This document shows, piece after piece, positions 18,309 to 52,876 of a DNA stretch of 64,000 bases. The notes beneath the pieces were generated by a model. It had not been told where the DNA came from. It saw nothing but the letters and a program-made list of their open reading frames with translations, and did no database searches. Within the stretch, counting starts at the first letter, position 1; every line of letters starts with the position of its first letter. A program made the translations under genes and the position numbers. Source of the DNA: Escherichia coli (GTDB taxonomy: Bacteria; Pseudomonadota; Gammaproteobacteria; Enterobacterales; Enterobacteriaceae); assembly GCF_009931435.1 (NCBI RefSeq), contig NZ_CP043414.1; one strand, 5' to 3'.

Positions 18309-18317
18309 TAACGGGGA

Positions 18318-26029: not shown

Positions 26030-28138
26030 TTAATTTCGGTTTCGGGTGACTTTAATCACGTCTGGCATCACGCGGATTTTGCGCATGATATTCGCCAGAT
26101 GCACACGGTCACGGGCGGTCAGACGAATAAAGGCGCTGTAGACGCGACCATCTTTCTCTTCCGTATTCAAACTTTGAATATTCGAGGTCGTGGTGTTAAT
26201 TGCCGCCGTCAGGTTTGCCAGCGCGCCCTGATGATTGAACATCTCCACCTTGATTTCGGTGATGAACTCCTGTGCCGTCTCTTTATCCCATTCCACAGCC
26301 ATAAATTTCTCTGGCTCTTTCTGGTAGCCACGGATGTTACGGCAGGATTCATGGTGGATCACCAGACCTTTACCGGGGCTGACGTGAGCGATAATCGGAT
26401 CGCCAGGAATGGGGCGGCAGCATTTCGCAAAGGTGATCAACACGCCATCAGCACCTTTAATCGGCAGATGCCCGTGGCTTTGAGTCGCCGGCGGAATGGA
26501 GGCGTCCCCATGTTGCAGATTTTTCGCGACCACCACGCTCATCGCGTTGCCAAGACCAATTTCCGCCAGCAGATCGTCAAGCGTTGCCAGCTTCATGCGG
26601 TCCAGCTCGCGCTGAATATTTTCCGGCGGGATTTCATTGAGCTTACGGCTGCCACCCAACGCATGATTGAGCAGACGACGGCCCAGGCTTACAGAATCAT
26701 CACGCTTGAGGTTTTTCAGCAACTGACGAATTTTGGCGCGCGCTTTCGAGCTAACGACAAAGTTCAGCCATGCGGCATTCGGGCGAGCGCCCGGTGCGGT
26801 AATGATTTCAACGGTTTGGCCACTGGAGAGCGGCTGCGACAGCGGGTAAGGCTGACGGTCGACGCGAGCGCCCACGCAGGCATGACCGATATCGGTATGC
26901 ACCGCATAAGCGAAGTCGACGGGCGTTGCACCGGCAGGCAGCTCTACAATGCGCCCTTCCGGTGTGAAAACGTAAATCTCATCCGGGAAGAGATCGGATT
27001 TAACGCTCTCGATAAATTCAAATGAGCTACCGGCACTCTGTTGCAGCTCCAGCAGGCTTTGCATCCAGCGCTGGGCGCGAATTTGTGCGGTAGTACTGGT
27101 TTCGCCGTGCTCTTTATAAGCCCAGTGCGCAGCAACACCCATCTCTGCCATCTGATCCATATCTTCGGTACGGATCTGGACCTCAACCGGCACGCCGTGC
27201 GGGCCAATCATCGAGGTGTGCAAAGACTGATAGCCGTTCGCTTTTGGAATAGCGATGTAGTCTTTCACGCGACCCGGACGCGGCTTGTACAGGCTATGCA
27301 TTTGCCCGAGCACGCGATAACAGGTGTCGGAATCATTGACGATCACGCGGAAGGCGTAGATGTCCATGATTGAGTGAAAACGCTGCTCTTTGAGCACCAT
27401 TTTGCAGTAGATCGAATAAAGATGCTTCTCGCGACCACTGACGCGGCACGGTATTCCCGCTTCCTGCAAACGCCCTTCGATTTCCGAGAGGATTTTTTGG
27501 ATCATCTCTTTACGGTTGCCGCGTGCGGCTTTCACCACTTCTTTGATTACGCGGTAACGGTTGGGATACAGCGCCTCAAAACCCAGCTCTTCGAGTTCGG
27601 TTTTAATGTGGTGGATACCTAAACGGTGTGCCAGCGGGCTGTAAATTTCGAGGGTTTCACGGGCGATGCGGCGACGTTTGTCCGGGCGAAGTGAGCCCAG
27701 CGTGCGCATGTTGTGGGTACGGTCGGCAAGTTTGATGAGAATGACGCGGATATCCTGCACCATCGCCATAATCATCTTGCGAAAGTTTTCGGCCTGCGCC
27801 TCTTTCTTATCGCGGAACTTGAGTTTATCAAGCTTTGATACCCCCTCTACCAGTTCGGCGACGCTTTTACCAAAAAGCTGCTCCATGTCCTGGTAGGTGG
27901 CGGGAGTATCTTCAATCACGTCATGCAGCAGCGCCGCCATTAGCGTTTCATAGTCGAGTTTCATCTCGGCCAGAATGCAGGCAACCGCTACCGGGTGCGT
28001 GATATAGGGTTCACCGCTTGAACGTGTTTGCCCCTCGTGAGCATCACGTGCAACGAGATACGCCTGCCGCAGACGCTTGATTTGGTCTTCCGGCAGGTAG
28101 GTTTGAATCAGTTGATTCAGGCTTTCAAACAGATACAA
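26030..28138 (-). CDS. spoT: Bifunctional (p)ppGpp synthetase/hydrolase SpoT
   Basis: 702-aa product; TTG initiation codon (reverse complement of 28136-28138) as known for spoT. Confidence 0.95.
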   Translation of the reverse strand: MYLFESLNQLIQTYLPEDQIKRLRQAYLVARDAHEGQTRSSGEPYITHPVAVACILAEMKLDYETLMAALLHDVIEDTPATYQDMEQLFGKSVAELVEGVSKLDKLKFRDKKEAQAENFRKMIMAMVQDIRVILIKLADRTHNMRTLGSLRPDKRRRIARETLEIYSPLAHRLGIHHIKTELEELGFEALYPNRYRVIKEVVKAARGNRKEMIQKILSEIEGRLQEAGIPCRVSGREKHLYSIYCKMVLKEQRFHSIMDIYAFRVIVNDSDTCYRVLGQMHSLYKPRPGRVKDYIAIPKANGYQSLHTSMIGPHGVPVEVQIRTEDMDQMAEMGVAAHWAYKEHGETSTTAQIRAQRWMQSLLELQQSAGSSFEFIESVKSDLFPDEIYVFTPEGRIVELPAGATPVDFAYAVHTDIGHACVGARVDRQPYPLSQPLSSGQTVEIITAPGARPNAAWLNFVVSSKARAKIRQLLKNLKRDDSVSLGRRLLNHALGGSRKLNEIPPENIQRELDRMKLATLDDLLAEIGLGNAMSVVVAKNLQHGDASIPPATQSHGHLPIKGADGVLITFAKCCRPIPGDPIIAHVSPGKGLVIHHESCRNIRGYQKEPEKFMAVEWDKETAQEFITEIKVEMFNHQGALANLTAAINTTTSNIQSLNTEEKDGRVYSAFIRLTARDRVHLANIMRKIRVMPDVIKVTRNRN

Positions 28139-28156
28139 GGGCGACCCGCTTTGTGA

Positions 28157-28432
28157 TTAACGACGACCTTCAGCAATAGCGGTAACGGCTTGTAATTCAG
28201 CGGCTTCCTGCTCTTGCTGTTCCTGGCGTTCGCGAACGTCGAGGATCTGGTTGTTGATCAGACCTTCTTCGATTTCGCGCAGCGCGATTACGGTGGTTTT
28301 ATCGTTTTCTTCCGGTACCAGCGGATCCTTTCCGCCTACCTGCATCTGACGAGCGCGACGCGCGGCGACCAGTACCAGGTCAAAACGGTTACCAATTTTC
28401 TCTACAGCGTCCTGAACAGTTACGCGTGCCAT
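28157..28432 (-). CDS. rpoZ: RNA polymerase omega subunit
   Basis: 91-aa [29 protein letters not shown]... Confidence 0.97.
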
Positions 28433-28486
28433 ACTTAAAAAGCTCCACAGGTGAAGAAATGACTGGGCATGATACTGAAATCAGGT

Positions 28487-29251
<765 letters not shown>

Positions 29252-29275
29252 GATTCACTGCAATAAAGACGATTC

Positions 29276-31664
<2,389 letters not shown>

Positions 31665-31955
31665 GGTTCTCTCCCTAAAAATCTGTCTGGCAGGGTAGCG
31701 ATTTGTGCGCATTGTCACGATTGAGATTTTTTAAGGTGAGAGGGAATTGATAACTTGTAGTTATGTGAAATTGTTATTTTCTGTAGCGTAGATGCATTCT
31801 TCTGACTTCTTGTCTGAGAAAATGCATAAGAAAAAATAGGTTAAAATTGAGGGGTGGAAAAGAAAGGTGCAATGTTTAGCCATTGTGTTCACCGCACCTG
31901 GACTTTGGCTTACGCATCGGGTATCTCAATCAACAAAAAGAGTTTTTAGTTTCTG

Positions 31956-32780
31956 CTATTTCTTCTCTGTAATTTTTACACTGTTTTCCAACTGCTTGAT
32001 GCTGACCTGCGGGGTCGGCAACTCCTCAGGCATGGTTCCGCCAAGTTCCTGAATGGTTTGCCTCACCTTGCTACCCACGTCAAAGTGTGTGGTATTAGCT
32101 TGCTGTTTTGAATTCACGCCATCCCGCTTGAGTTTTTCTTCTGTTTGGGTAGCTCGAAAGAGATTAGCCGCCAGTTCTGTTGAACCCATATGATCCAGGA
32201 TCTTCTGACTCTTTTTCAGCCCCTTCCGCTGATGGATGGCTTTCTGATCTAATCCACCATACAGTCCCCGGTAACCATGATTCTGAAATATGGCGAAATC
32301 GATAGCTGTCGCTACCCCAGCTTGCTGCGCTGCCTCAACTAATTGTTTGTTATGTTCTTTCAACTCATTTCTCAGAAAAAGACGCTTTTCGTCTTCACGA
32401 AGTTGCCTGAAAGCTTCATCGTCAGCCAGCTCCTGCCGTCGGGTCTGGATAGCAAAATAAGTTTGCCCTGCCGCAATAACCGGTTTCGCAGGGTCGCCGT
32501 TTTGTACTACCAGGTAACAGGCATAGCGGGAGAGTACGATGTCTTTTAATGCTCTTTTGGCATTTGAGCCAATTTTGACCATATCGAGGATCTCCTCGAA
32601 ATGGTCATCAATTGTGTGACCACTATTCAGACAAGCTTCTTTGGCGCGCGTTAATACAGGTATAAAGTGACGATACTCTGAATAACCCAGTAGTTTTCCA
32701 AGTTGTCTTGCTGACCATTGTTCTGCTCCGTTTGCATTAATCAGCTTTATCTCTTCAAAAGGTTGATGATGTTCGTTCAT
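31956..32780 (-). CDS. dinD: DNA damage-inducible protein D
   Basis: Start at MNEHHQPFEEIKLI gives 274 aa; LexA box upstream. Confidence 0.9.
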   Translation of the reverse strand: MNEHHQPFEEIKLINANGAEQWSARQLGKLLGYSEYRHFIPVLTRAKEACLNSGHTIDDHFEEILDMVKIGSNAKRALKDIVLSRYACYLVVQNGDPAKPVIAAGQTYFAIQTRRQELADDEAFRQLREDEKRLFLRNELKEHNKQLVEAAQQAGVATAIDFAIFQNHGYRGLYGGLDQKAIHQRKGLKKSQKILDHMGSTELAANLFRATQTEEKLKRDGVNSKQQANTTHFDVGSKVRQTIQELGGTMPEELPTPQVSIKQLENSVKITEKK

Positions 32781-32825
32781 TGCCCACTCCATGTGATATC
32801 GATTGCAAAGAAAGTAAATCTGCAA

Positions 32826-32841
32826 CTGTATTTATATACAG
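32826..32841 (-). promoter_or_regulatory. LexA operator (SOS box) of dinD
   Basis: CTGTATTTATATACAG, a perfect CTGT-N8-ACAG palindrome, 46 bp upstream of the dinD start. Confidence 0.7.
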
Positions 32842-32933
32842 TTGTGAGTATCTCACGTTCTCAGTGTGCTGGGCAAAAAAACATCGCAAAATCTGGAGCA
32901 GGCACGCAAAACAGAATTGAAGTTGCGGGGAAG

Positions 32934-32966
32934 AAAAATGCCGCTCTGTTTGAGTGGGCGGCATTT
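32934..32966 (-). terminator. Rho-independent terminator downstream of yicC
   Basis: Stem ATGCCGC/GCGGCAT with a T-run following on the minus strand. Confidence 0.5.
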
Positions 32967-33000
32967 GTGAAGGCTGAAAAGTAAGAATTGGCGTTACGAG

Positions 33001-33864
33001 TTATTCAATGTTCTGAATCTGCTCGCGCATCTGCTCAATCAACACTTTCAGCTCAATCGCGGAGTTAGTCACTTCGGCATTGATAGACTTCGAGGCCAGG
33101 GTGTTCGACTCGCGGTTGAACTCCTGCATCATAAAGTCCAGACGACGACCAACGGCTTCTTTTTTCTTCAGAATGTTGTAGGTCTCTTTAACATGCGCTT
33201 CGAGGCGGTCCAACTCTTCGGCAACGTCAATTCGTTGTGCCAGCAGAACCAACTCCTGCTCCAGACGGTTGTTTTCCAGTTGCACCTGGGCGTCTTCCAG
33301 CTTAGCCACCAGACGTTCACGCTGCCATTGCAGGATTTCCGGCATGTGGGCGCGGACTTTGACCACTTCGGCGGTCACGCCTTCCAGACGCTGCTCGATC
33401 AATGCTTTCAGCGCCTGACCTTCGGTTTCGCGCGCGACGATAAAGTCATCCAGCGTACCATCCAGCGCCACGAGAATTTCAGCGGCAATCGCGTCGAGAT
33501 CCTGTTCCTGGGCCGCCATCACGCCTGGCCAGCGGAGAATATCAACCGGGTTGATTTCCCCTTCGTCACTCTGCATTTTTACCCAGTTCGCGGCAGTTAC
33601 CAGCTGTTTAGCCAGTTTTTCGTTGAGGATCAGCTCACCTTGTGCGCTGACATCTGGCTCATAGCGCAGGGTACATTCCACTTTACCACGCGTCAGGCGA
33701 GAACGAATACGCTCGCGAACGACAGGTTCAAGGCTACGGAACTGCTCCGGCAGACGAAAGTAAGTTTCCAGATAACGCTGGTTTACCGAGCGCATTTCCC
33801 AGGTTGCGCTCCCCCATTCACCCTTGATTTCACGCCGGGCGTAGGCGGTCATACTGCGGATCAT
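33001..33864 (-). CDS. yicC: UPF0701 protein YicC
   Basis: 287-aa MIRSMTAYARREIKGEWGSATWEMRSVNQRYLE... Confidence 0.9.
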   Translation of the reverse strand: MIRSMTAYARREIKGEWGSATWEMRSVNQRYLETYFRLPEQFRSLEPVVRERIRSRLTRGKVECTLRYEPDVSAQGELILNEKLAKQLVTAANWVKMQSDEGEINPVDILRWPGVMAAQEQDLDAIAAEILVALDGTLDDFIVARETEGQALKALIEQRLEGVTAEVVKVRAHMPEILQWQRERLVAKLEDAQVQLENNRLEQELVLLAQRIDVAEELDRLEAHVKETYNILKKKEAVGRRLDFMMQEFNRESNTLASKSINAEVTNSAIELKVLIEQMREQIQNIE

Positions 33865-33990
33865 AGACGTTCCTGTTTATAAAAGGAGAGGTGGAAGGAT
33901 TATAGCCATCGATGCCTTGTCAGGATAGGAATAACCGCCGGAAGTCCGTATAATGCGCAGCCACATTTGTTTCAAGCCGGAGATTTCAAT

Positions 33991-34707
33991 ATGCGTCCAG
34001 CAGGCCGTAGCAATAATCAGGTGCGTCCCGTTACCCTGACTCGTAACTATACAAAACATGCAGAAGGCTCGGTGCTGGTCGAATTTGGCGATACCAAAGT
34101 ATTATGTACCGCCTCTATTGAAGAAGGCGTGCCCCGCTTCCTGAAAGGTCAGGGCCAGGGCTGGATCACCGCAGAATACGGTATGCTGCCGCGTTCTACT
34201 CATACCCGTAATGCCCGTGAAGCGGCGAAAGGTAAGCAGGGGGGACGCACAATGGAAATCCAGCGTCTGATCGCCCGTGCTCTTCGCGCGGCAGTAGATT
34301 TGAAAGCGCTGGGTGAGTTCACCATTACGCTGGACTGCGACGTGCTTCAGGCTGATGGTGGCACGCGTACCGCTTCGATTACCGGTGCTTGTGTTGCACT
34401 GGCCGATGCCCTGAATAAACTGGTTGAAAATGGCAAGCTGAAAACCAACCCGATGAAAGGGATGGTAGCCGCGGTTTCTGTCGGGATTGTGAACGGCGAA
34501 GCGGTTTGCGATCTGGAATACGTTGAAGACTCTGCCGCTGAAACGGACATGAACGTGGTGATGACCGAAGACGGGCGCATCATTGAAGTTCAGGGAACGG
34601 CAGAAGGCGAGCCGTTTACCCATGAAGAGCTACTCACCTTGTTGGCGCTGGCCCGAGGGGGAATCGAATCCATTGTAGCGACGCAGAAGGCGGCGCTGGC
34701 AAACTGA
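33991..34707 (+). CDS. rph: Ribonuclease PH, intact (no K-12 rph-1 frameshift)
   Basis: Start at [14 protein letters not shown] gives the full 238 aa ending ...[11 protein letters not shown]. Confidence 0.95.
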
Positions 34708-34712
34708 TTTTT

Positions 34713-34740
34713 AAGGCGACTGATGAGTCGCCTTTTTTTT
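34713..34740 (+). terminator. pyrE attenuator (UTP-sensitive transcription terminator between rph and pyrE)
   Basis: Hairpin GGCGACT-GATG-AGTCGCC followed by T8, placed just after the rph stop and before the pyrE start. Confidence 0.75.
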
Positions 34741-34772
34741 GTCTGTAGAAAAGTAAGATGAGGAGCGAAGGC

Positions 34773-35414
34773 ATGAAACCATATCAGCGCCAGTTTATTG
34801 AATTTGCGCTTGGCAAGCAGGTGTTAAAGTTTGGCGAGTTTACGCTGAAGTCCGGGCGCAAAAGCCCCTATTTCTTCAACGCCGGGCTGTTTAATACCGG
34901 GCGCGATCTGGCACTGTTAGGCCGTTTTTACGCTGAAGCATTGGTGGATTCCGGCATTGAGTTCGATCTGCTGTTTGGCCCTGCTTACAAAGGGATCCCA
35001 ATTGCCACTACTACCGCAGTGGCGCTGGCGGAGCATCATGACCTGGACCTGCCGTACTGCTTTAACCGCAAAGAAGCAAAAGACCACGGTGAAGGCGGCA
35101 ATCTGGTCGGTAGCGCGTTACAAGGACGCGTAATGCTGGTGGATGATGTGATCACCGCCGGAACGGCGATTCGCGAGTCGATGGAAATTATTCAGGCCAA
35201 TGGCGCGACGCTTGCTGGCGTATTGATTTCGCTCGATCGTCAGGAGCGTGGTCGCGGCGAGATTTCGGCAATTCAGGAAGTTGAACGTGATTACAACTGC
35301 AAAGTGATCTCTATCATCACCCTGAAAGACCTGATTGCTTACCTCGAAGAGAAGCCAGAAATGGCGGAACATCTGGCGGCGGTTAAGGCCTACCGCGAAG
35401 AGTTTGGCGTTTAA
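34773..35414 (+). CDS. pyrE: Orotate phosphoribosyltransferase
   Basis: Start at [13 protein letters not shown] gives 213 aa. Confidence 0.95.
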
Positions 35415-35484
35415 AAATATGCGCTGCGCAGGTTTTTACTGTGCGCAGCGTGATGCGGTTTAAGATATCGTGTTAATCTGCTTT

Positions 35485-35678
35485 CGCCAGCAGTGGCAAT
35501 AGCGTTTCCGGCCTTTTATGCCGGGAGGGTCGGCGAGTCGCCGACTTAACGCCAGTAGGTTGTCCAGATACCCAAAGTCGCTCCATTGTACTTAAGTACG
35601 CTTCGCGTACGTCGCGCTGACGCGCTCAGTACAGTTACGCGCCTTCGGGATGGTTTGATGGTATTGCTGCTGTTGGCG
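35485..35678 (+). ncRNA. msr-msd: Retron msr-msd region (template for msDNA), Ec107-like; boundaries approximate
   Basis: Inverted repeats a1 (35485-35501) and a2 (35662-35678) can pair over 17 positions including G-U wobbles; internal perfect stem-loops at 35529-35545 and 35597-35611; lies immediately upstream of the RT gene. Confidence 0.55.
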
Positions 35679-35710
35679 CCTCTTTTGGCCGCCGTGATGT
35701 GGAGAGTGGA

Positions 35711-36670
35711 ATGGATGCTACCCGGATAACCCTTCTGGCGCTCGATTTGTTCGGCTCGCCGGGCTGGAGCGCCGATAAAGAAATACAGCGGCTGTATGCG
35801 CTCAGTAATCATGCCGGACGCCATTACCGACGCATTATTCTTTCTAAACGCCACGGTGGTCAGCGGCTGGTGTTAGCCCCTGATTACTTGCTCAAAACCG
35901 TACAGCGCAACATTCTTAAGAACGTCCTTTCACAATTTCCACTTTCCTCTTTTGCTACCGCCTACCGACAGGGTCGCCCAATCGTCAGCAACGCGCAGCC
36001 TCACTGCCAACAGCCGCAGATCCTTAAACTCGATATCGAAAACTTTTTCGATAGCATTAGCTGGCTACAGGTCTGGCGTGTGTTTAGCCAGACCCAGTTG
36101 CCACGCAATGTGGTAACCATGCTGACCTGGCTTTGTTGCTATAACGACGCGTTACCGCAGGGGGCGCCAACTTCGCCTGCCATTTCCAATCTTGTGATGC
36201 GCCGTTTTGATGAGTGCATAGGGGAATGGTGTCAGGCTCGGGGAATTACCTACACCCGCTACTGCGATGACATGACCTTTTCTGGTCACTTCAATGCCCG
36301 CCAGGTTAAAAATAAAGTATGCGGATTGTTAGCGGAGCTGGGCCTGAGCCTCAATCAACGCAAAAGCTGCCTGATAGCTGCCTGTAAGCGCCAGCAGGTA
36401 ACCGGGATTGTTGTTAATCACAAGCCACAGCTTGCCCGTGAAGCGCGCCGGGCGCTGCGTCAGGAAGTACATTTGTGCCAAAAATATGGCGTTATTTCGC
36501 ATCTTAGTCATCGTGGTGAACTTGATCCTTCTGGCGATCTCCACGCACAGGCAACGGCGTATCTTTATGCTTTGCAGGGAAGAATAAACTGGTTATTGCA
36601 AATCAATCCTGAGGATGAGGCCTTTAAACAGGCGAGGGTGAGTGTAAAGCGAATGCTGGTGGCATGGTAA
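35711..36670 (+). CDS. ret: Retron-type reverse transcriptase (319 aa), consistent with retron-Ec107 RT
   Basis: RT motifs including YCDDMTF (YxDD box); GGAG Shine-Dalgarno 6 nt upstream of the ATG at 35711; inserted between convergent pyrE and slmA. Confidence 0.9.
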   Translation: MDATRITLLALDLFGSPGWSADKEIQRLYALSNHAGRHYRRIILSKRHGGQRLVLAPDYLLKTVQRNILKNVLSQFPLSSFATAYRQGRPIVSNAQPHCQQPQILKLDIENFFDSISWLQVWRVFSQTQLPRNVVTMLTWLCCYNDALPQGAPTSPAISNLVMRRFDECIGEWCQARGITYTRYCDDMTFSGHFNARQVKNKVCGLLAELGLSLNQRKSCLIAACKRQQVTGIVVNHKPQLAREARRALRQEVHLCQKYGVISHLSHRGELDPSGDLHAQATAYLYALQGRINWLLQINPEDEAFKQARVSVKRMLVAW

Positions 36671-36713
36671 GAAAAGCGTCAGGCAGACGTTTCTGCCTGA
36701 ACGTTTGGGAGAA

Positions 36714-37310
36714 TTACTGCAACTGCGCAGCAATTAGCGGCCAGCGGGCGTCAAAGTCATCCGTCGGGCGGTATTTAAACTCGCTGCGGACAAAGCGTGA
36801 CAGCATACCTTCACAGAAGGCCAGGATCTGGCTTGCCAGCAGGGTTTCGTCGGTGGTGTAACCTTCACCCTCACGCATTCTCTTTTCACGCAATACCTGA
36901 CGCAACTGCGCTTCAATACGCTCGAATAGCTGGTTGATGCGCCCTTGCAGGCGATCCTGTTCAAACATTAGTGCATGACCAGTGAGGATGCGGGTCAGGC
37001 CAGGATTACGCTCACCAAAACCGAGAAGCAGCAACACAATCAGACGCAGGCGCGCTGTGGTGTCTTTCTCATCTTTCAGAATCAGATTGATGCGAGTAAT
37101 CAGGCTATCTTCGATAAACTCAATCAGGCTATCGAACATGCGGGTCTTACTGGGGAAGTGGCGATACAGTGCCGCTTCGGAAACGCCGACAGAGGCGGCC
37201 AGTTTTGCCGTCGTGATACGTTGGCTTCCATCGCTGGATTCCAGCATCAGCGCCAGAGACTGAAGTATTTCCTCGCGACGGTTCCTTTTCGCAGTTTGTT
37301 TTTCTGCCAT
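36714..37310 (-). CDS. slmA: Nucleoid occlusion factor SlmA (TetR family)
   Basis: Start at [16 protein letters not shown] gives 198 aa. Confidence 0.95.
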
Positions 37311-37416
37311 GTTACAAAATACCCCTGAAAATAAGCACTTGCCAGGCGGCACCCACGCTATGACCGCAAACGAAATGTTTGCGGCTATGTTATGACGTTA
37401 TTCGGATGCGTATGTG

Positions 37417-37872
37417 TTACTGACGACCAGAGTGACCAAAGCCGCCTTCACCGCGGTCGGTGGCGTCGAAATCTTCCACCAGATTAAATTCAGCCTGTAC
37501 TACCGGAACAAAAATCATCTGGGCGATGCGTTCGCCAGGTTGAATGGTGAAGCTGTCCTGACCACGGTTCCACACGGAAATCATCAACTGGCCCTGATAG
37601 TCAGAATCGATCAATCCTACCAGGTTACCAAGCACGATACCGTGCTTATGTCCCAATCCGGAGCGCGGCAGCATCATTGCCGCCAGTGAAGGATCGGCAA
37701 TATGAATCGCCAGCCCGGTCGGAACCAGCGTAGTGTCACCCGGAGCCAGTTCTACGGCGTCGTCGAGACAGGCACGCAGGTCAAGTCCGGCAGAGCCAGA
37801 GGTGGCATAAGTCGGGAGCGGAAATTCCTTCCCAACGCGCGGGTCCAGAATCTTAACGTCGATTTTTTTCAT
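37417..37872 (-). CDS. dut: dUTP diphosphatase
   Basis: Start at [14 protein letters not shown] gives 151 aa. Confidence 0.95.
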
Positions 37873-39073
37873 CATAACGGGTCACGATCTCGTCGAGTAA
37901 TAATTGGCCAAGGAGCTCTTTGCGCTCAAGCGGTAAGACTTTATCTCCGTCCTGCCAGAAAAGGTGTAATGCGTTGTTGTCGCTGTTAAATCCTTGAGTT
38001 GGCTGGGAAACATCGTTCGCGCAGATCAGATCAAGGTTTTTACGGATACGTTTTTGCCGGGCGTATTCTTCCACATTATTTGTTTCGGCGGCAAATCCAA
38101 CGACGTAGGGTCGATGGTCTTTTAGTGCGGCAACACCAGCGACGATATCGGGGTTTTTAACCATTTTTATTGTTAATTCATCACCCTGCGTGGCCTGCTT
38201 TTTGATTTTCTCTGGGGCTACGGTAGCTGCGCGATAATCCGCCACGGCGGCGCAACCGATAAAAATATTTTGCTGCTGTACAGAAGCATTCACGGCCGCT
38301 TCCATTTCCAGCGCAGTCATCACATCAACACGTTTAACAAACGGTGGCGTCGGTAGTGAAACCGGACCTGATACCAGCGTGACGTTCGCGCCACGACGGG
38401 CAGCGGCGGCGGCGATAGCAAAACCCATCTTGCCTGAGCTGTGATTAGAGATATAACGCACCGGATCGAGCGGTTCACGCGTCGGGCCGGCGGTAATCAT
38501 AATGTTCAGATGTTTCAGGTCGTTGACGGGCGAAAAATGTGCTACCGCCATATCAACAATGGTTAACGGATCGAGCATTCGCCCAGGGCCGATATCACCA
38601 CAAGCCTGACTGCCGCTATCTGGCCCCCAGATGAGCAAACCACGCGAGGCAAGCAGCTCTAAATTATGCTGCGTGGCAGCTGCACGGTACATCTGCTGGT
38701 TCATGGCGGGCAGCACGGCTACAGGCGCAGGTGTAGCCAGGCAAATCGTCGATACCAGGTCATTCGCCATTCCGGCAGCAACACGGGCAATCAAATCTGC
38801 CGTGGCAGGGGCGAGAATCACTAAATCAGCCCATTTACCCAGCTCAATATGGCCCATAGCGGCTTCGGCTGCCGGGTCAAGCAGACTGTCGGAAACGGGA
38901 TACCCCGAAACTGCCTGCAAGCTAAGTGGGGTAATAAAGGCTTTTGCCGCTTCGGTCATGGCTACGCGGACGTCGGCCCCGCGATCGCGCAAACGACGCG
39001 CCAGTTCAGGGGTTTTATAGGCAGCAATACCGCCGCTGACGCCGAGAACGATTTTTTTACCGGCCAGGCTCAT
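37853..39073 (-). CDS. coaBC: Bifunctional phosphopantothenoylcysteine decarboxylase / phosphopantothenate-cysteine ligase
   Basis: Start at [20 protein letters not shown] gives 406 aa (Dfp). Confidence 0.95.
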
Positions 39074-39238
39074 GATGATTTTTCCTGTTGGGTGACACCA
39101 GAAGTTGGCGATTTTATCACAATACTTTTGTTGTCGTGCCTTCACCTGAAAATCACTTTGCGAGGCGCTTTCCAGGATTGAAAACTGACCGTCGATTTAA
39201 CGGAACGGCTATGACAGGATGCGAGCACCACAAAGGAG

Positions 39239-39913
39239 GTGAAGGTGAAAAACAATGCACAGCTGTTGATGCCGCGCGAAAAAATGCTGAAGTTTGGCAT
39301 TGGTGCGTTAACGGATGTTGAGCTGCTGGCGCTATTTCTGCGTACCGGAACGCGCGGTAAAGATGTATTAACCCTGGCAAAAGAGATGCTGGAGAATTTC
39401 GGCTCTCTTTATGGCTTGTTAACCTCTGAATATGAACAATTTAGCGGTGTTCATGGAATTGGTGTGGCGAAGTTCGCTCAGTTAAAGGGGATTGCTGAAC
39501 TGGCGCGGCGTTACTACAACGTGCGGATGCGTGAAGAAAGCCCTTTACTCAGCCCGGAGATGACGAGGGAATTTTTACAAAGCCAGCTCACGGGCGAGGA
39601 GCGGGAGATCTTTATGGTGATCTTTCTCGACTCCCAACACAGGGTTATAACGCATAGCCGTCTTTTTTCCGGCACGCTAAACCATGTTGAAGTCCATCCT
39701 CGGGAAATTATCCGCGAAGCGATAAAAATAAACGCCTCGGCGCTGATCCTTGCACATAATCACCCTTCGGGTTGTGCTGAACCCAGTAAAGCGGATAAAC
39801 TCATTACCGAACGGATAATAAAAAGTTGTCAGTTCATGGATTTACGCGTGCTCGACCATATCGTGATTGGGCGTGGAGAGTATGTTTCTTTTGCCGAACG
39901 CGGCTGGATTTAA
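39239..39913 (+). CDS. yicR: RadC-like JAB-domain protein YicR (UPF0758)
   Basis: 224-aa product with the HNHPSG metalloprotease-like motif; exact start codon uncertain by a few residues. Confidence 0.9.
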
Positions 39914-40108
39914 CCCGCTATGCGCGATCCTTCGGGATCTTTGTCTGTTCGGGACTTGAGCACATCGCTGAGTCAGCGTATACTACGCCACCTTTGAGAA
40001 TCTCGGGTTTGGCATTTGGGCCTGGCAATCGAGAGTTCACATAGAACTGCGATGACCGGGCTGTAAAGCCTGACGAGGCGCCAATACCCCATACGAAGCT
40101 CGAGCTAA

Positions 40109-40366
<258 letters not shown>

Positions 40367-40383
40367 GTACTTAGAGGAAATAA

Positions 40384-40554
<171 letters not shown>

Positions 40555-40651
40555 TTCTCGCTTTGATGTAACGAAAAACCTCGCTCCGGCGGGGTTTTTT
40601 GTTATCTGCTTGCCCCCATATTGACTGCATCTGTTGATTCCTGGAGATGCT

Positions 40652-41461
40652 ATGCCTGAATTACCCGAAGTTGAAACCAGCCGTCGCGGCATAGAACCGC
40701 ATCTCGTTGGTGCAACCATTCTTCATGCGGTGGTGCGCAACGGACGCCTGCGCTGGCCGGTTTCAGAAGAGATTTATCGATTAAGTGATCAACCAGTGCT
40801 TAGCGTGCAGCGGCGGGCTAAATATCTGCTGCTGGAGCTGCCGGAGGGCTGGATTATCATTCATTTGGGGATGTCTGGCAGCCTGCGCATCCTTTCAGAA
40901 GAACTTCCTCCCGAAAAGCATGACCATGTTGATTTGGTGATGAGCAACGGCAAAGTACTGCGCTATACCGATCCTCGCCGCTTTGGTGCCTGGCTGTGGA
41001 CCAAAGAGCTGGAAGGGCATAATGTGCTGGCCCACCTTGGACCGGAGCCGCTTAGCGACGATTTCAACGGTGAGTACCTGCATCAGAAGTGCGCGAAGAA
41101 AAAAACGGCGATTAAACCGTGGCTGATGGATAACAAGCTGGTGGTAGGGGTAGGGAATATCTATGCCAGCGAATCTCTGTTTGCGGCGGGGATCCATCCG
41201 GATCGGCTGGCGTCATCACTGTCACTGGCAGAGTGTGAATTGTTAGCTCGGGTGATTAAAGCGGTGTTGCTGCGTTCGATTGAGCAGGGCGGTACAACGC
41301 TGAAAGATTTTCTGCAAAGTGATGGTAAACCGGGCTATTTCGCTCAGGAATTGCAGGTTTACGGGCGAAAAGGCGAGCCGTGTCGAGTGTGCGGTACGCC
41401 GATTGTGGCGACGAAACATGCGCAGCGGGCAACGTTTTATTGTCGGCAGTGCCAGAAGTAA
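40652..41461 (+). CDS. mutM: Formamidopyrimidine-DNA glycosylase (Fpg/MutM)
   Basis: Start at [13 protein letters not shown] gives 269 aa; C-terminal zinc finger CRVCGTPI...CRQCQ. Confidence 0.95.
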
Positions 41462-41470
41462 TTGATGCGC

Positions 41471-41492
41471 GCCGGATGGCATACCATCCGGC
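41471..41492. terminator. Hairpin between convergent mutM and coaD (possible bidirectional terminator)
   Basis: Perfect 9-bp stem GCCGGATGG/CCATCCGGC with a 4-nt loop; no clear U-tract, so function is uncertain. Confidence 0.35.
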
Positions 41493-41499
41493 ATAAACG

Positions 41500-43264
<1,765 letters not shown>

Positions 43265-43615
43265 AGTAAATAGCTGACTTATGGATGTGCTGGGGATTCT
43301 ATGTATTTAGCTGTGGCTTTACCATTACTTTTCCCGTTTTTGACTTAAATAGCAATTTACCCGCCAATTCTTGCTGAACATCTATACTTTTTTTGTATTT
43401 TTATGCGATTCATTGATTTCCGCAGTACGTGCAGTAAGGAATCGCGGAGCAACAGTGAAAGAATATTGTTGCTAATGATTTTATTTGATTGATTTCTTTA
43501 TTGAAAAACAACGATGTGCTTAAAAATCATTCGGATCGGATTGCCGCGAAAGAAGTGATACACTAGCGCGTCAATATCAGTACGGTATCAGTATTCAGGT
43601 AGCTGTTGAGCCTGG

Positions 43616-43627
43616 GGCGGTAGCGTG
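43616..43627 (+). promoter_or_regulatory. ops element (within a JUMPstart sequence) in the waaQ operon leader; RfaH recruitment site
   Basis: GGCGGTAGCGTG matches the ops consensus; located about 50 bp upstream of waaQ. Confidence 0.8.
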
Positions 43628-43676
43628 CTTTTTCTGCTTCACCTTAATCGGATAATCTCAACAAAAAGAGTTACTT

Positions 43677-44735
43677 GTGGATAAGCCATTTCGAAGAATT
43701 TTGCTCATTAAGATGCGTTTTCATGGGGATATGTTATTAACTACTCCCGTCATTAGTTCGCTGAAAAAAAATTACCCTGACGCAAAAATCGATGTGCTGC
43801 TTTATCAGGATACCATCCCGATTCTGTCTGAAAATCCAGAGATTAACGCGCTCTACGGCATAAAAAATAAAAAAGCAAAAGCCTCAGAAAAAATTTCCAA
43901 CTTTTTTCATCTCATCAAGGTATTACGTGCCAATAAGTATGACCTTATCGTCAATCTTACCGATCAATGGATGGTTGCTATACTGGTTCGCTTATTAAAT
44001 GCCCGTGTGAAAATTTCCCAGGATTATCATCATCGGCAGTCTGCTTTTTGGCGTAAAAGCTTCACCCATCTGGTGCCGTTGCAGGGTGGAAATGTGGTGG
44101 AAAGTAACTTATCCGTGCTGACGCCACTGGGTCTCGAATCGTTGGTGAAGCAGACAACCATGAGTTACCCGCCTGCAAGCTGGAAACGAATGCGTCGCGA
44201 ACTTGATCACGCAGGTGTTGGACAAAATTATGTGGTTATCCAACCTACCGCGCGGCAAATCTTTAAATGCTGGGACAACGCCAAGTTTTCCGCTGTGATT
44301 GATGCCTTACATACACGTGGCTATGAAGTCGTTCTGACGTCCGGCCCGGATAAAGACGATCTGGCCTGCGTCAATGAAATTGCGCAGGGATGCCAGACGC
44401 CACCAGTAACGGCGTTGGCCGGAAAGGTAACCTTCCCGGAACTTGGTGCGTTAATCGATCATGCGCAGCTGTTTATTGGCGTTGATTCCGCACCGGCGCA
44501 CATTGCCGCTGCAGTTAATACGCCGCTGATATCGCTGTTTGGTGCGACAGACCATATTTTCTGGCGTCCCTGGTCAAATAACATGATTCAATTCTGGGCT
44601 GGAGATTACCGGGAAATGCCAACACGCGATCAGCGTGACCGAAATGAGATGTATCTTTCGGTTATTCCGGCGGCAGATGTCATTGCAGCTGTCGATAAAT
44701 TACTTCCCTCCTCCACGACAGGTACGTCGTTATGA
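43677..44735 (+). CDS. waaQ: LPS heptosyltransferase III
   Basis: Heptosyltransferase N-terminus (RILLIKMRFHGDMLLTTP, compare WaaC MRVLIVKTSSMGDVLHT); GTG start at 43677 assumed, true start may be a few codons downstream. Confidence 0.9.
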   Translation: MDKPFRRILLIKMRFHGDMLLTTPVISSLKKNYPDAKIDVLLYQDTIPILSENPEINALYGIKNKKAKASEKISNFFHLIKVLRANKYDLIVNLTDQWMVAILVRLLNARVKISQDYHHRQSAFWRKSFTHLVPLQGGNVVESNLSVLTPLGLESLVKQTTMSYPPASWKRMRRELDHAGVGQNYVVIQPTARQIFKCWDNAKFSAVIDALHTRGYEVVLTSGPDKDDLACVNEIAQGCQTPPVTALAGKVTFPELGALIDHAQLFIGVDSAPAHIAAAVNTPLISLFGATDHIFWRPWSNNMIQFWAGDYREMPTRDQRDRNEMYLSVIPAADVIAAVDKLLPSSTTGTSL

Positions 44736-45856
44736 TCGTTGCTTTTTGTTTATATAAATATTTTCCCTTTGGCGGTTTGCAGCGCGATTTTATGCGTATT
44801 GCTCAGACAGTCGCTGCCCGAGGTCATCATGTTCGGGTTTATACCCAGTCGTGGGAAGGCGAATGCCCTGATGTATTTGAACTGATCAACGTGCCGGTTA
44901 AATCGCATACTAATCACGGGCGCAATGCGGAGTATTTTGCCTGGGTGCAAAAACATTTACGTGAACATCCCGTCGATAGAGTCGTTGGATTCAACAAAAT
45001 GCCGGGGCTGGACGTTTATTATGCCGCTGATGTTTGTTATGCCGAGAAAGTGGCGCAGGAGAAAGGCTTTTTCTATCGCTTGACGTCACGTTATCGCCAT
45101 TATGCCGCCTTTGAGCGGGCAACCTTTGAACAGGGCAAGCCGACACAGTTGCTGATGCTGACGGACAAGCAAATCGCCGATTTCCAGAAACATTATCAGA
45201 CTGAAGCGGAGCGTTTTCATATTCTGCCACCGGGGATTTATCCTGATCGTAAATATAGCCAGCAGCCAGCCAATAGCCGTGAAATCTTCCGTAAGAAGAA
45301 TGGAATAACCGAACAACAATATTTATTGTTGCAGGTCGGTTCAGACTTCACGCGTAAAGGTGTTGATCGTTCCATTGAAGCACTTGCTTCATTACCGGAT
45401 TCGCTGCGCCACAACACATTGCTATATGTTGTTGGGCAGGATAAACCGCGAAAATTTGAGGCGCTGGCAGAAAAACGCGGCGTGCGCAGTAATGTTCACT
45501 TCTTCTCGGGGCGCAACGATGTCTCGGAATTAATGGCGGCGGCGGATTTATTACTGCATCCTGCCTACCAGGAAGCGGCGGGAATTGTGCTGCTGGAAGC
45601 GATTACTGCAGGATTACCGGTACTAACAACAGCCGTTTGTGGCTATGCGCGTTATATTGTTGACGCCAATTGCGGCGAGGCTATTGCTGAGCCATTCCGC
45701 CAGGAAACATTGAATGAGATTTTACGCAAAGCGTTAACGCAATCTTCATTGCGCCAGGCCTGGGCGGAAAATGCGCGACATTATGCTGATACACAAGATT
45801 TATACAGTCTGCCAGAGAAAGCAGCGGACATCATAACGGGTGGTCTGGATGGTTGA
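44732..45856 (+). CDS. waaG: LPS core alpha-1,3-glucosyltransferase I (GT4)
   Basis: 374-aa product matching WaaG. Confidence 0.95.
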
Positions 45857-46646
45857 ACTTAAAGAGCCGTTTGCCACGTTATGGCGCGGTAAAGATCCTT
45901 TTGAGGAAGTTAAAACCTTGCAGGGTGAGGTTTTTCGTGAACTGGAAACTCGCCGCACTCTGCGCTTTGAAATGGCGGGCAAAAGCTATTTTCTCAAATG
46001 GCATCGCGGCACGACCCTGAAAGAGATAATCAAAAATTTACTCTCATTGCGGATGCCAGTATTAGGCGCAGACCGCGAATGGAATGCGATTCATCGACTG
46101 CGGGATGTCGGCGTTGATACTATGTATGGGGTGGCATTCGGCGAAAAAGGCATTAATCCACTGACCAGAACCTCGTTTATTATAACCGAAGATCTGACAC
46201 CAACCATCAGTCTGGAAGATTACTGTGCTGACTGGGCGACTAACCCTCCAGATGTTCGCGTAAAGCGTATGCTTATTAAGCGTGTCGCGATGATGGTGCG
46301 CGATATGCATGCTGCGGGCATTAACCACCGTGACTGTTATATCTGTCATTTCCTGCTGCACTTGCCTTTTTCCGGTAAGGAAGAGGAGTTAAAAATTTCA
46401 GTAATTGACCTGCACCGGGCGCAGCTTCGCACGCGCGTTCCACGTCGTTGGCGCGATAAAGATCTTATTGGGCTTTATTTTTCTTCGATGAATATTGGCC
46501 TGACTCAGCGGGATATCTGGCGGTTCATGAAGGTGTATTTTGCTGCCCCGCTTAAAGACATTCTCAAGCAGGAACAAGGGCTGCTGTCGCAAGCAGAAGC
46601 AAAAGCCACAAAAATCAGGGAAAGAACGATTCGAAAATCGTTGTAA
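45849..46646 (+). CDS. waaP: LPS core heptose I kinase
   Basis: Start at [14 protein letters not shown] gives 265 aa. Confidence 0.95.
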
Positions 46647-46661
46647 TTTCCGGAGAGAAAT

Positions 46662-47678
46662 ATGAGTGCCCACTATTTTAATCCACAAGAGATGATCAAT
46701 AAGACAATCATCTTCGATGAAAGGCCAGAGGCGTCAGTGGCATCATCATTCCATGTTGCTTATGGCATTGATAAAAACTTTCTTTTTGGTTGTGGTGTTT
46801 CAATCACGTCAGTTTTGTTACATAACAACGACGTGAGTTTTGTCTTCCACGTTTTTATTGATGATATCCCTGACGCCGATATCCAGCGTTTATCCCAATT
46901 GGCGAAAAGCTATCATACCTGTATCCAGATCCATCTGGTAAATTGTGAACGGCTTAAGGTATTACCGACGACCAAAAATTGGTCTATTGCCATGTATTTC
47001 CGTTTTGTAATTGCAGATTACTTTATTGATCAACAAGATAAGATCCTGTACCTGGATGCTGATATCGCCTGTCAGGGAACCTTAAAACCGCTGATAACAA
47101 TGGATCTTGCCAATAACGTTGCTGCTGTTGTTACTGAACGCGATGCTAACTGGTGGTCGTTACGGGCTCAAAGTCTGCAGTGTAATGAACTTGAAAAGGG
47201 TTACTTTAATTCAGGTGTCCTGTTAATTAATACACTAGCGTGGGCGCAGGAGTCCGTTTCTGCTAAAGCGATGTCGATGCTTGCTGATAAAGCCGTCGTT
47301 TCCCGTTTAACCTATATGGATCAAGATATACTAAATCTTATCCTGTTAGGGAAAGTTAAATTCATTGATGCTAAATACAATACGCAATTTAGTTTAAATT
47401 ATGAATTAAAAAAATCATTTATTTGTCCAATTAATGATGAAACCGTATTAATTCATTATGTCGGCCCGACAAAACCCTGGCATTACTGGGCCGGTTATCC
47501 AAGCGCGCAGCCATTTATCAAAGCCAAAGAAGCATCGCCATGGAAAAATGAACCGTTAATGCGGCCAATTAACTCAAATTATGCTCGTTATTGCGCTAAG
47601 CATAATTTTAAACAAAATAAACCAATTAACGGGATAATGAATTATATTTATTATTTTTATTTAAAGATAATAAAATGA
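46662..47678 (+). CDS. waaO: GT8-family LPS outer-core glycosyltransferase; by position the R1-type WaaO
   Basis: 338-aa GT8 protein (DxD, YFNSGVLLIN motifs) immediately after waaP; AT-rich. Confidence 0.7.
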   Translation: MSAHYFNPQEMINKTIIFDERPEASVASSFHVAYGIDKNFLFGCGVSITSVLLHNNDVSFVFHVFIDDIPDADIQRLSQLAKSYHTCIQIHLVNCERLKVLPTTKNWSIAMYFRFVIADYFIDQQDKILYLDADIACQGTLKPLITMDLANNVAAVVTERDANWWSLRAQSLQCNELEKGYFNSGVLLINTLAWAQESVSAKAMSMLADKAVVSRLTYMDQDILNLILLGKVKFIDAKYNTQFSLNYELKKSFICPINDETVLIHYVGPTKPWHYWAGYPSAQPFIKAKEASPWKNEPLMRPINSNYARYCAKHNFKQNKPINGIMNYIYYFYLKIIK

Positions 47679-47694
47679 CATTGAGAAAAGTTAA

Positions 47695-48690
47695 ATGAAT
47701 GAATTTATAAAAGAACGGTTTTCGTATTTAGCAGATAATAAAAAAGAAAACGTCCCAGAGCTAAATGTTTCCTACGGTATCGATAAGAATTTTTTGTATG
47801 GTGCTGGCGTTTCAATTTCTTCCGTTTTGATTAATAATTCAGATATTAATTTTGTCTTTCATGTTTTCACTGATTATGTGGATGATGATTATTTAAAGTC
47901 ATTTAATGAAACAGCAAAACAATTTAATACCTCAATTATTGTATATTTAATTGACCCAAAATACTTTGCTGATCTACCGACGTCACAGTTTTGGTCGTAC
48001 GCGACATACTTCAGGGTATTGTCCTTTGAATATCTGAGTGAAAGTATTTCCACACTGCTGTATCTGGATGCCGATGTCGTTTGTAAAGGAAGTCTGAAAC
48101 CTCTCACAAAAATTATATTTAAAGATGAGTTTGCTGCGGTTATTCCTGACAATGATAGTACTCAGGCGGCATGTGCAAAACGTCTTAACATTCCCGAAAT
48201 GAATGGACGTTATTTCAATGCAGGCGTTATCTATGTCAATCTTAAAAAATGGCATGAAGCAAATTTGACACCGTATTTACTCAAACTTTTACGAGGGGAA
48301 ACTAAATATGGCTCTCTTAAATATTTAGATCAGGATGCGTTGAATATCGCATTTAATATGAATAATATCTACCTTGCGAAGGATTTTGATACTATTTATA
48401 CCCTGAAAAACGAACTTTATGATCGTAGTCATCGAAAGTATCAGCAAACCATTACCGATAAAACAGTGTTGATTCACTATACAGGGATAACTAAACCATG
48501 GCATAGCTGGGCTGGATATCCGTCTGCATCATACTTTAATATCGCGCGTGAACAATCTCCCTGGAAGAAATATCCTCTTAAAGAGGCGCGGACTGTTGCA
48601 GAAATGCAGAAACAATATAAGCATCTGTTTGCCCATGGTGAGTATATAAAAGGCATAACTTCATTAATTAAGTACAAGCTTAAGAAATAA
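47695..48690 (+). CDS. waaT: GT8-family LPS outer-core glycosyltransferase; by position the R1-type WaaT
   Basis: 331-aa GT8 paralog (LDADVVCKG, YFNAGVIYVN). Confidence 0.65.
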   Translation: MNEFIKERFSYLADNKKENVPELNVSYGIDKNFLYGAGVSISSVLINNSDINFVFHVFTDYVDDDYLKSFNETAKQFNTSIIVYLIDPKYFADLPTSQFWSYATYFRVLSFEYLSESISTLLYLDADVVCKGSLKPLTKIIFKDEFAAVIPDNDSTQAACAKRLNIPEMNGRYFNAGVIYVNLKKWHEANLTPYLLKLLRGETKYGSLKYLDQDALNIAFNMNNIYLAKDFDTIYTLKNELYDRSHRKYQQTITDKTVLIHYTGITKPWHSWAGYPSASYFNIAREQSPWKKYPLKEARTVAEMQKQYKHLFAHGEYIKGITSLIKYKLKK

Positions 48691-48699
48691 ATTACTCTT

Positions 48700-49392
48700 A
48701 TGATTACAAGTATACGTTATCGCGGCTTCTCATTTTATTACAAAGATAATGATAATAAATATAAAGAAATCTTTGATGAAATACTGGCCTATAATTTTAA
48801 AACAGTAAAAGTATTACGTAATATTGATGATACCAAAGTATCGTTGATTGATACGAAATATGGTCGCTATGTTTTTAAAGTCTTTGCTCCGAAAACGAAA
48901 AGGAATGAACGTTTTTTAAAATCTTTTGTAAAAGGTGACTACTATCAGAATTTGATCGTTGAAACCGATCGTGTCAGAAGTGCAGGTCTTACTTTTCCTA
49001 ATGATTTTTATTTTCTGGCTGAGCGTAAAATTTTCAACTATGCCAGTGTTTTTATCATGCTTATCGAGTATGTCGAGGGCGTAGAGCTCAATGATATGCC
49101 GATTATTCCAGAAAATGTTAAAGCAGAAATTAAGGTTTCAATGGAAAAATTGCATGCCTTAAATATGCTATCGGGCGACCCACACCGGGGTAACTTTATC
49201 GTTAGTAAAGATGGTGTCAGGATAATTGACCTATCCGGTAAAAGCTGTACGGCAGAGCGTAAAGCTCGTGATCGTCTGGCCATGGAACGTCACCTGGGTA
49301 TTGCCAACGAAATAAAAGATTATGGCTACTATTCAGTAATCTACAGAACCAAACTACGCAAATTTATTAAAAAATTAAAAGGCAAAGCGTAA
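48700..49392 (+). CDS. waaY: LPS core heptose II kinase
   Basis: 230-aa kinase-like protein between GT8 genes, as WaaY in waa clusters. Confidence 0.8.
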   Translation: MITSIRYRGFSFYYKDNDNKYKEIFDEILAYNFKTVKVLRNIDDTKVSLIDTKYGRYVFKVFAPKTKRNERFLKSFVKGDYYQNLIVETDRVRSAGLTFPNDFYFLAERKIFNYASVFIMLIEYVEGVELNDMPIIPENVKAEIKVSMEKLHALNMLSGDPHRGNFIVSKDGVRIIDLSGKSCTAERKARDRLAMERHLGIANEIKDYGYYSVIYRTKLRKFIKKLKGKA

Positions 49393-49417
49393 ACCACACA
49401 GTCAAAACGGAACCAAC

Positions 49418-50446: not shown

Positions 50447-50524
50447 AAATCATGGATGTCTGAGTTACAATAATAATTAAGGATGAGTACTATCATATTT
50501 TATTAGTTCAGGCAAGAGAACACG

Positions 50525-51508: not shown

Positions 51509-51553
51509 GTCTTCCATTAAATAACCCATCCTCGTAGCATAGGTTGAAATTAT

Positions 51554-52807: not shown

Positions 52808-52817
52808 TGAATATGTG

Positions 52818-52849: not shown

Positions 52850-52876
52850 CAAAATTATCTATTAAAGAGTTGTAAT

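Follow-up and report, generated by a model that had tools for sequence, protein, structure and literature searches.

A probable retron Ec107 allele between pyrE and slmA of Escherichia coli, with no effector gene beside its reverse transcriptase

The DNA analysed here, in the following simply called the window, is a stretch of 64,000 nucleotides (nt) from contig NZ_CP043414.1 of Escherichia coli (assembly GCF_009931435.1), in which an insert of 1299 bp lies between the convergent genes pyrE and slmA. This insert is very probably an allele of retron Ec107 (Retron-Eco5), that is, a self-contained cassette in which the RNA parts msr and msd are followed by a reverse transcriptase (RT), and which belongs to a stand-alone branch of RT clade 2. 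The identification is based on the identity and the motifs of the RT, on a covarying RNA bounded by two arms, on the published insertion site and on the lack of any other conserved open reading frame (ORF) in the insert. It is a rediscovery, as the retron is already known and has been described in publications as an orphan since 2020. The gene order in the window is rph, pyrE, insert, slmA, dut and coaBC, and the boundaries are as follows.

34773-35414, + strand: pyrE, convergent with slmA
35415-36713, + strand: whole retron insert, 1299 bp, from alignments to K-12, whose site is empty, and to three E. coli sites that carry the insert
36714-37310, - strand: slmA, convergent with pyrE

An earlier reading made from the letters of the window, in the following the sequence-only reading, had proposed that about 1.3 kb replace the short palindromic pyrE-slmA spacer of K-12. 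Alignment of the sites bears this out: the K-12 spacer consists of 36 nt with one hairpin, and it is swapped here for the 1299-bp insert. Comparing empty and occupied sites, the left junction falls within the first bases that follow the stop of pyrE, and the right one coincides with that of slmA. The hairpin displaced by the insert served both convergent genes in K-12. Retron Ec107 has been described between pyrE and ttk, where it replaces a 34-bp palindrome and shows no features of a mobile element (Simon 2019, PMC6868368). Precisely this arrangement was found in the window, as the insert occupies the pyrE/ttk(slmA) gap in place of the palindrome of about 34 bp, and no mobile-element genes flank it.

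Reverse transcriptase and msr-msd RNA of the insert

The RT and its ribosome-binding site were located as follows.

35701-35706, + strand: ribosome-binding site GGAGAG, 4 nt before the ATG, read from the sequence
35711-36670, + strand: retron RT of 319 amino acids with NAQPH at residues 94-98, YCDD at 184-187 and VTG at 230-232, from ORF, profile matches and motifs

The ORF of the RT runs from the ATG at 35711 to the stop at 36668-36670, and the GGAG of its ribosome-binding site is kept in all six enterobacterial copies compared. The protein matches Pfam RVT_1. Among the PADLOC models the best one is RT_Ec107-like (2.1e-132, 439 bits), followed by RT_III-A with 311 bits, and the NCBIfam retron models score it at 170-229 bits. 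UniRef entry Q05804_ECOLX, which falls into the same 90% cluster and which we take to be the Ec107 RT, is identical at 306 of 319 residues (96%). With 13 amino acid differences from this reference and a DNA divergence of about 4%, the window copy represents a separate allelic lineage. The exact RT allele of the window is nevertheless already public, in about 420 blocks in assemblies, and its database entry is an E. coli protein.

Regarding motifs, retron RTs are set apart by NAXXH (region X) and VTG (region Y), as defined by Simon 2019 and the SPIRE survey. Both of them are present in the window RT together with the YXDD box, and N94, A95, H98, Y184-D187 and V230-G232 are invariant in 15 clade members. 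The Ec107 RT is described as carrying YCDD instead of YADD (Simon 2019, PMC6868368), and YCDD is also what is found here. Altogether, the fit to Ec107 in identity and position that the sequence-only reading had seen is upheld by the near-identical RT, the top PADLOC model, the published site and the published size with YCDD, and its coordinates for the insert, the 319-residue ORF with the YCDD box and the 17-nt arms were correct on recheck. Also the order of the elements, first RNA and then RT with no other ORF, is that of Ec107.

Weak NCBIfam matches to a group II intron RT, to Drt2 and to Drt3a could suggest that the protein is another kind of bacterial RT, namely a group II intron maturase, a defence-associated RT (DRT) or the RT of a diversity-generating retroelement. 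These matches stay far under their cut-offs (66 against 300, 58 against 390 and 51 against 200 bits, respectively), whereas the retron models give 170-439 bits, NAXXH and VTG are in place, and a covarying RNA bounded by a2 and a1 arms lies upstream. We thus regard this explanation as refuted.

The closest solved structures are retron RTs as well, the first of them being Ec86 (E = 1.7e-38, residues 34-266). Like Ec86/Eco1 (type II-A; 7v9u, 7v9x, 8qbk), the RT of the window is of similar size and would work by the same principle, i.e. by priming from the 2'-OH of a G beside the a2/a1 stem. Unlike Ec86, which the literature gives as prophage-borne and with an adjacent nucleoside deoxyribosyltransferase-like effector, the element of the window has neither of these two properties.

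The features of the RNA and of the multicopy single-stranded DNA (msDNA) predicted from it are the following.

35471-35479, + strand: extended -10-like element TGtTAATCT, putative retron promoter, read by eye from the sequence
35482-35681, + strand: covariance-model match to Ec107-like msr-msd
35485-35501, + strand: 5' inverted-repeat arm (conventionally a2), from fold, arm complementarity and covariation
35502, + strand: predicted branching G, the first unpaired base after the arm, within an ATAG that is invariant in 17 of 17 RNAs
35502-35559, + strand: msr (RNA part) with hairpins at 35506-35526 and 35527-35547; 35485-35559 folds at -32.7 kcal/mol (z = -3.1)
35555-35661, - strand: msd, of which the + strand is the RNA template and the - strand the predicted 107-nt msDNA, placed by the 3' arm and the published length, with a putative 3' end
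35662-35678, + strand: 3' inverted-repeat arm (conventionally a1), from fold, arm complementarity and covariation

In the sequence-only reading, a noncoding region of 290 bp with the layout of a retron RNA had been proposed. The layout stands, as the region is structured, bounded by the arms and placed upstream of the RT; its length is 296 bp (35415-35710). Likewise, the terminal inverted repeats are where they had been placed, but their labels were reversed with respect to the usual convention, in which the 5' arm is a2 and the 3' arm is a1. The arms are 82% Watson-Crick complementary over 17 nt, and 17 of 17 positions are paired when three G-U pairs are counted. The folding that had been proposed as a check gave -92 kcal/mol for 35480-35685 (z = -4.66), with the arms closing the structure and with none of 200 shuffled sequences as stable. 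For the predicted msDNA, the fold is an extended stem that encloses two hairpins (-21.1 kcal/mol, z = -2.6).

Covariation was analysed in an alignment of 17 homologous upstream regions from Escherichia, Pseudocitrobacter, Leminorella, Budvicia, Pragia, Neisseria and several Firmicutes. The RNAalifold consensus contains 43 pairs, of which 26 show compensatory changes, and 95.1% of the cells pair, compared to 29-46% after sliding the partners by 1-3 columns. Similarly, the covariation score of 0.431 drops to 0.05-0.10 when the partners are slid, and it was reached by none of 500 shuffles. In detail, compensatory changes affect 9 of 15 pairs in helix 1 (the arm stem) and 6 of 9 pairs in hairpin 2 of the msr, and helices 3-6 of the msd covary as well. 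The core of msr hairpin 2, GCGAGTCG, is invariant but for one G-to-A change in Leminorella.

Because none of the 4227 families of Rfam 15 matched the RNA, even at E <= 1, we built a covariance model of our own for the Ec107-like RNA. Also this second check, which the sequence-only reading had suggested, gave a clear answer: one single match in the 64 kb, at 35482-35681, with 184.4 bits and E = 1.9e-45, a score that is partly so by construction, since the window sequence was in the seed of the model, while its uniqueness in the window is not. The same model was then applied to 88 related loci from Enterobacterales, Neisseria and many Lachnospiraceae. One Ec107-like RNA per locus, on the same strand and directly upstream of the RT, was found in 80 of them.

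The msd is usually more variable than other parts of retron RNAs. In our alignment its template (columns 89-225) was about as conserved across phyla as the msr, with mean pairwise identities of 0.57 and 0.53, respectively. The 21 invariant template columns, which are common to Proteobacteria and Firmicutes, include GTAC...GTAC and the inner hairpin GCAC/GTGC. This conservation hints at a sequence-specific recognition of the msDNA.

Regarding the promoter, a scan with the sigma-70 consensus in which the -35 hexamer was required found none upstream of the msr. TGnTATNNT-like elements are located at an equal distance upstream of the 5' arm in same-gap locus L005 (loci of the comparison are numbered with L), in Pseudocitrobacter and in Leminorella.

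For the biogenesis of the msDNA, established retron biochemistry and the geometry of the window sequence suggest the following scheme. From the extended -10 element at 35471-35479, transcription would start at about 35485, and the two 17-nt arms would then pair. The RT would prime on the 2'-OH of G35502, the predicted branch point, and copy the template from 35661 leftward to about 35555. Once host RNase H had degraded the RNA that was copied, the product would be a single-stranded DNA of 107 nt, attached by its branch to an RNA of about 75 nt. An abstract of 1992 on Ec107 is said to give a 75-nt RNA that is branched at its 18th residue, a G, and the geometry of the window would fit this as well as the published 107 nt. 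Counting 107 nt from the 3' arm leads to 35661-35555, which overlaps by 5 nt with the end of a 75-nt RNA starting at 35485 (35485-35559). A branched msDNA has been reported for the reference Ec107, as far as reviews that cite the original work tell (Herzer 1992).

Flanks of the cassette and the search for an effector

Two hairpins border the cassette.

35421-35451, + strand: hairpin after the pyrE stop, fold of -20.5 kcal/mol (z = -2.67), U-tract absent
36679-36700, no strand assigned: hairpin in the 43-bp spacer between RT and slmA, from a terminator scan (z = -4.5 on the + strand and -4.6 on the - strand), followed by CGCTTTTCTT on the - strand

The first hairpin had been seen as either the left boundary of the retron or a replacement terminator. 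It is indeed present, and it probably is a replacement terminator of pyrE, albeit one lacking a U-tract. A hairpin with other stem sequences is situated at the same place in L005 and in Pseudocitrobacter. Because the U-tract is missing, pyrE transcription may read through into the retron. The second hairpin fits an intrinsic terminator for slmA on the - strand and probably also terminates the retron transcript.

As the sequence-only reading had claimed, the RT stop is 43 bp away from the slmA stop, and nothing that could be an effector fits beside the RT: the insert holds no other conserved ORF, and the flanks are ordinary pyrE and slmA. In Pseudocitrobacter the space is even smaller, with the called RT gene overlapping the end of slmA by 4 nt. 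A search for a hidden effector in the insert showed that most alternative ORFs of at least 35 codons are interrupted by stops in one or more orthologues. Three remain open and were likewise rejected as coding sequences: one has 47 codons and lies over the conserved RNA, one has 59 codons in another frame of the RT, and one has 39 codons in antisense. The 47-codon ORF with a TTG start (35586-35729, + strand) spans the msd, the 3' arm and the start of the RT; it is open in L016 and L005, and over 38 alignable codons in L008. Most likely it is a by-product of the conservation of the RNA sequence.

To extend the analysis beyond the window, all ORFs up to 5 kb away from the 88 related loci were clustered, and no family of neighbours occurred in more than 10 of them. 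The commonest clusters were those of an ABC ATPase, of aroA, of prephenate dehydrogenase and, within the enterobacterial subset, of the syntenic genes pyrE, slmA and rph; the recurring families reflect synteny or common housekeeping genes. In the window itself, the four flanking proteins match no PADLOC model at E <= 0.01, which for PyrE includes the phosphoribosyltransferase (PRTase) effectors of retrons. An effector adjacent or fused to the RT, as in tripartite defence systems, is thus not found at this locus. Altogether, being effector-less is a trait of the whole clade and not of the window copy alone. The same had already been stated for Ec107-like retrons by Mestre 2020 (PMC7736814) and by the 2026 SPIRE preprint.

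Some genes do stand close to the RT in single lineages. In two Lachnospiraceae loci (L078 8890-9603, and L085), a metallophosphoesterase-like ORF shares 1 nt with the RT stop. A response-regulator/AraC protein follows the RT in six loci of the Hungatella/Lacrimispora type, and in L037, L044 and L046 its gene is immediate, being located 42 bp after the RT or overlapping the RT end by 15 nt. Both families were rejected as effectors, as they are too rare.

Two comparisons put this into context. The nearest RT relatives outside the Ec107-like model are those of the type III-A retrons (RT clades 2, 5, 6 and 9), and the two groups share a node (Mestre 2020, PMC7736814). In contrast to type III-A, whose RTs come with a PRTase-like effector with or without a winged-helix protein, no gene of these two kinds adjoins the RT, neither here nor in the 88 related loci. 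The cassettes of clade 11 from Actinobacteria are the other retron group with no associated protein (Mestre 2020, PMC7736814). They differ from the present cassette in RT clade, RNA models (clade11-A and clade11-B) and hosts.

Given that the effectors of type III retrons are PRTase-like according to the literature, the neighbouring pyrE, which codes for orotate phosphoribosyltransferase, might have been co-opted as the effector. It lies directly upstream on the same strand, read-through past the hairpin with no U-tract is possible, and Mestre 2020 (PMC7736814) remarked on the coincidence, with orotate phosphoribosyltransferase adjacent in 2 of 59 clade members. Three observations largely refute this idea and leave it very improbable. 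Firstly, five of seven sampled retron-bearing E. coli strains have the same PyrE accession (WP_000806177.1) as the retron-free K-12. Secondly, PyrE lacks any PADLOC match, as described above. Thirdly, in Leminorella, Pragia, Budvicia, Neisseria and Lachnospiraceae the relatives stand apart from pyrE.

Distribution, selection and possible function

The insert was detected in 381 of 5426 complete E. coli genomes, always as a single chromosomal copy at pyrE-slmA, and in seven of eight complete E. coli genomes that were sampled the RT is annotated as intact. At the DNA level, the window insert is 95.4-96.5% identical to 380 of the 381 copies and 98.6% identical to the remaining one. The latter belongs to E. 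coli 2020CK-00188 (L002 812-1771), in whose annotation the RT is a pseudogene interrupted by an internal stop. For the flanks of the insert, e.g. 28000-35400, the best identity to any of the 5426 complete genomes is only 97.1% over 7.4 kb. A draft contig (GCA_036950425.1) is 99.986% identical over 6960 bp. The lineage of the window is thus public but uncommon among finished genomes.

Among the E. coli RT alleles, synonymous divergence (dS) reaches 0.17. In pairs with enough differences, the ratio of nonsynonymous to synonymous divergence (dN/dS) is 0.13-0.26, with a ratio of means of 0.16; one pair of near-identical alleles gave 0.59 from 6 substitutions. Because a dS of up to 0.17 is combined with a dN/dS of about 0.16, we conclude that several old allelic lineages segregate in E. 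coli under purifying selection.

Outside of E. coli, retrons in the pyrE-slmA gap with RT identities of 67-87% are present in Escherichia sp. MOD1-EC7003 (L016), in an uncultured Enterobacteriaceae and in three Pseudocitrobacter species; for the latter two groups the RT identity is 67-72%. The same-gap loci are L005 (5690-7006), the Pseudocitrobacter loci L008, L011 and L017-L019, and L016. This shared site may mean that the insertion is older than these genera, or that it was gained repeatedly. Between genera, dN/dS of the RT is below 0.1 with saturated dS, and the proportion of synonymous differences (pS) of the RT is saturated at about 0.75, compared to 0.5-0.6 in the codon-biased flanks. 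The flanking genes of the same-site orthologues differ between genera by a dS of about 0.8-1.2, and within Pseudocitrobacter the dS of the RT (0.53) matches that of the flanks (0.38-0.60). Vertical descent across genera is plausible; being saturated, synonymous divergence does not discriminate between it and repeated site-specific gain.

Further away, the cassette resides between cyaY and cyaA in Leminorella, and amid unrelated housekeeping genes in Pragia, Budvicia, Neisseria and dozens of Lachnospiraceae. No relative of more than 43% identity was found in 50,697 phage and 72,556 plasmid records, and carriage by a mobile element was rejected on this basis.

These observations bear on the question whether the cassette could be a decaying type III-A remnant that has lost its PRTase-like effector, and whose msDNA is still made but has no function. 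The node shared with PRTase-linked RTs, the effector loss suggested by Mestre 2020 (PMC7736814), the patchy presence within E. coli and the one copy with an internal stop would agree with decay. However, the RT has a dN/dS of about 0.16 among E. coli alleles and of less than 0.1 across genera, the RNA helices are preserved by compensatory changes across phyla, and RT and RNA stay together in 80 of 88 loci. Moreover, same-site orthologues persist across genera, and a functionless non-mobile gene would not stay intact for so long. We consider such a remnant quite improbable.

A more serious rival is a tripartite abortive-infection retron whose toxin is encoded at an unlinked locus and is held inactive by RT and msDNA until a phage disturbs the msDNA. 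As far as abstracts tell, every functionally characterised retron guards a toxin. Furthermore, RTs that are linked to PRTase effectors form the sister group of the RT clade (Mestre 2020, PMC7736814), with RT_III-A as the second PADLOC match, and our view covers 64 kb of the genome. On the other hand, effectors are tightly linked to the RT in all retron types defined in the literature, and a majority of the genomes that carry orphan retrons have no homologue of any protein known to accompany retrons (Mestre 2020, PMC7736814). The contexts of the cassette are housekeeping genes that differ by lineage and have nothing in common, and a toxin and its antitoxin set apart would be an unstable pair with the retron absent from 93% of E. 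coli. An unlinked toxin is therefore unlikely in our opinion.

Instead, we tentatively favor the RT-msDNA particle itself as the working product, which would act via a conserved host protein or a phage product and not via a dedicated neighbour. For Ec107, classical toxin guarding is less likely than such an effector-independent particle. An induction of Ec107 on starvation, as cited in Simon 2019 from Herzer 1996, would fit a role of this kind with a host or phage factor. In a wider and still more tentative sense, Ec107-like retrons could be an old, chromosomally fixed and vertically inherited class with no dedicated effector and with a function of their own, either linked to stress or in direct interference, and the copy at pyrE-slmA would then predate the split of Escherichia and Pseudocitrobacter.

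Several points weigh against these interpretations. Of the complete E. coli genomes, 93% lack the element, and in the closest complete-genome relative the RT is a pseudogene, so that any function of the element is dispensable. The window RT departs from the reference at 13 residues, and its msDNA is a prediction, as are promoter, branch point and msDNA ends. The target of the particle is not indicated by the sequence, and the absence of an effector applies to the 64 kb, so that a dedicated one could sit elsewhere in the genome. Finally, no phage-defence phenotype has been reported for Ec107: it was left out of the phage test set of Millman 2020, and we found no later test of phage protection by Ec107 in the literature consulted.

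The rest of the window and the meaning of the cassette

Apart from the retron, the window differs from K-12 in other places. An island at 1-7067, beside tRNA-Sec (6973-7067, - strand), is missing at the K-12 site and contains the following features.

92-1501: C-terminal fragment of a Tn3-family transposase
1565-1945: GNAT acetyltransferase
2146-2805, - strand: type A chloramphenicol acetyltransferase
3278-3781: piece of an IS1 transposase
4034-5077, - strand: tetratricopeptide repeat (TPR) protein
5489-6673, - strand: P4-type integrase

Between yicI and yicH, 7.25 kb (11094-18347) are inserted relative to K-12. They encode a PRD/BglG-type regulator, the phosphotransferase system (PTS) components IIA, IIB and IIC, two class II ketose-bisphosphate aldolases, a ROK fructokinase-like kinase and a D-lyxose/D-mannose isomerase; this insert is a sugar-utilisation islet and not a defence system. 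When the lipopolysaccharide (LPS) core region (waa, 46542-52959) was compared with the waa cluster of K-12 by blastn, no match exceeded 200 bp; the flank at 36713-46542 is only 90% identical to K-12. The LPS core is probably of a different type from that of K-12.

In conclusion, retrons are now explained as guards of toxins, and the Ec107-like clade is widespread, has no toxin beside its RT, is not mobile and is kept intact by selection. In the covariance-model counts of the 2026 SPIRE survey, the Ec107_like RNA model of Mestre 2020 is among the most often matched, which places this RNA among the retron RNAs with the most detections. Any E. coli strain bearing Ec107 lends itself well to asking what a retron does without an effector, and the same-site orthologues in other genera, the deep allelic lineages within E. 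coli and the conserved sequence of the msDNA make this question sharper. If true, an effector-independent Ec107-like class would mean that retrons have a second mode of action apart from the guarding of toxins.

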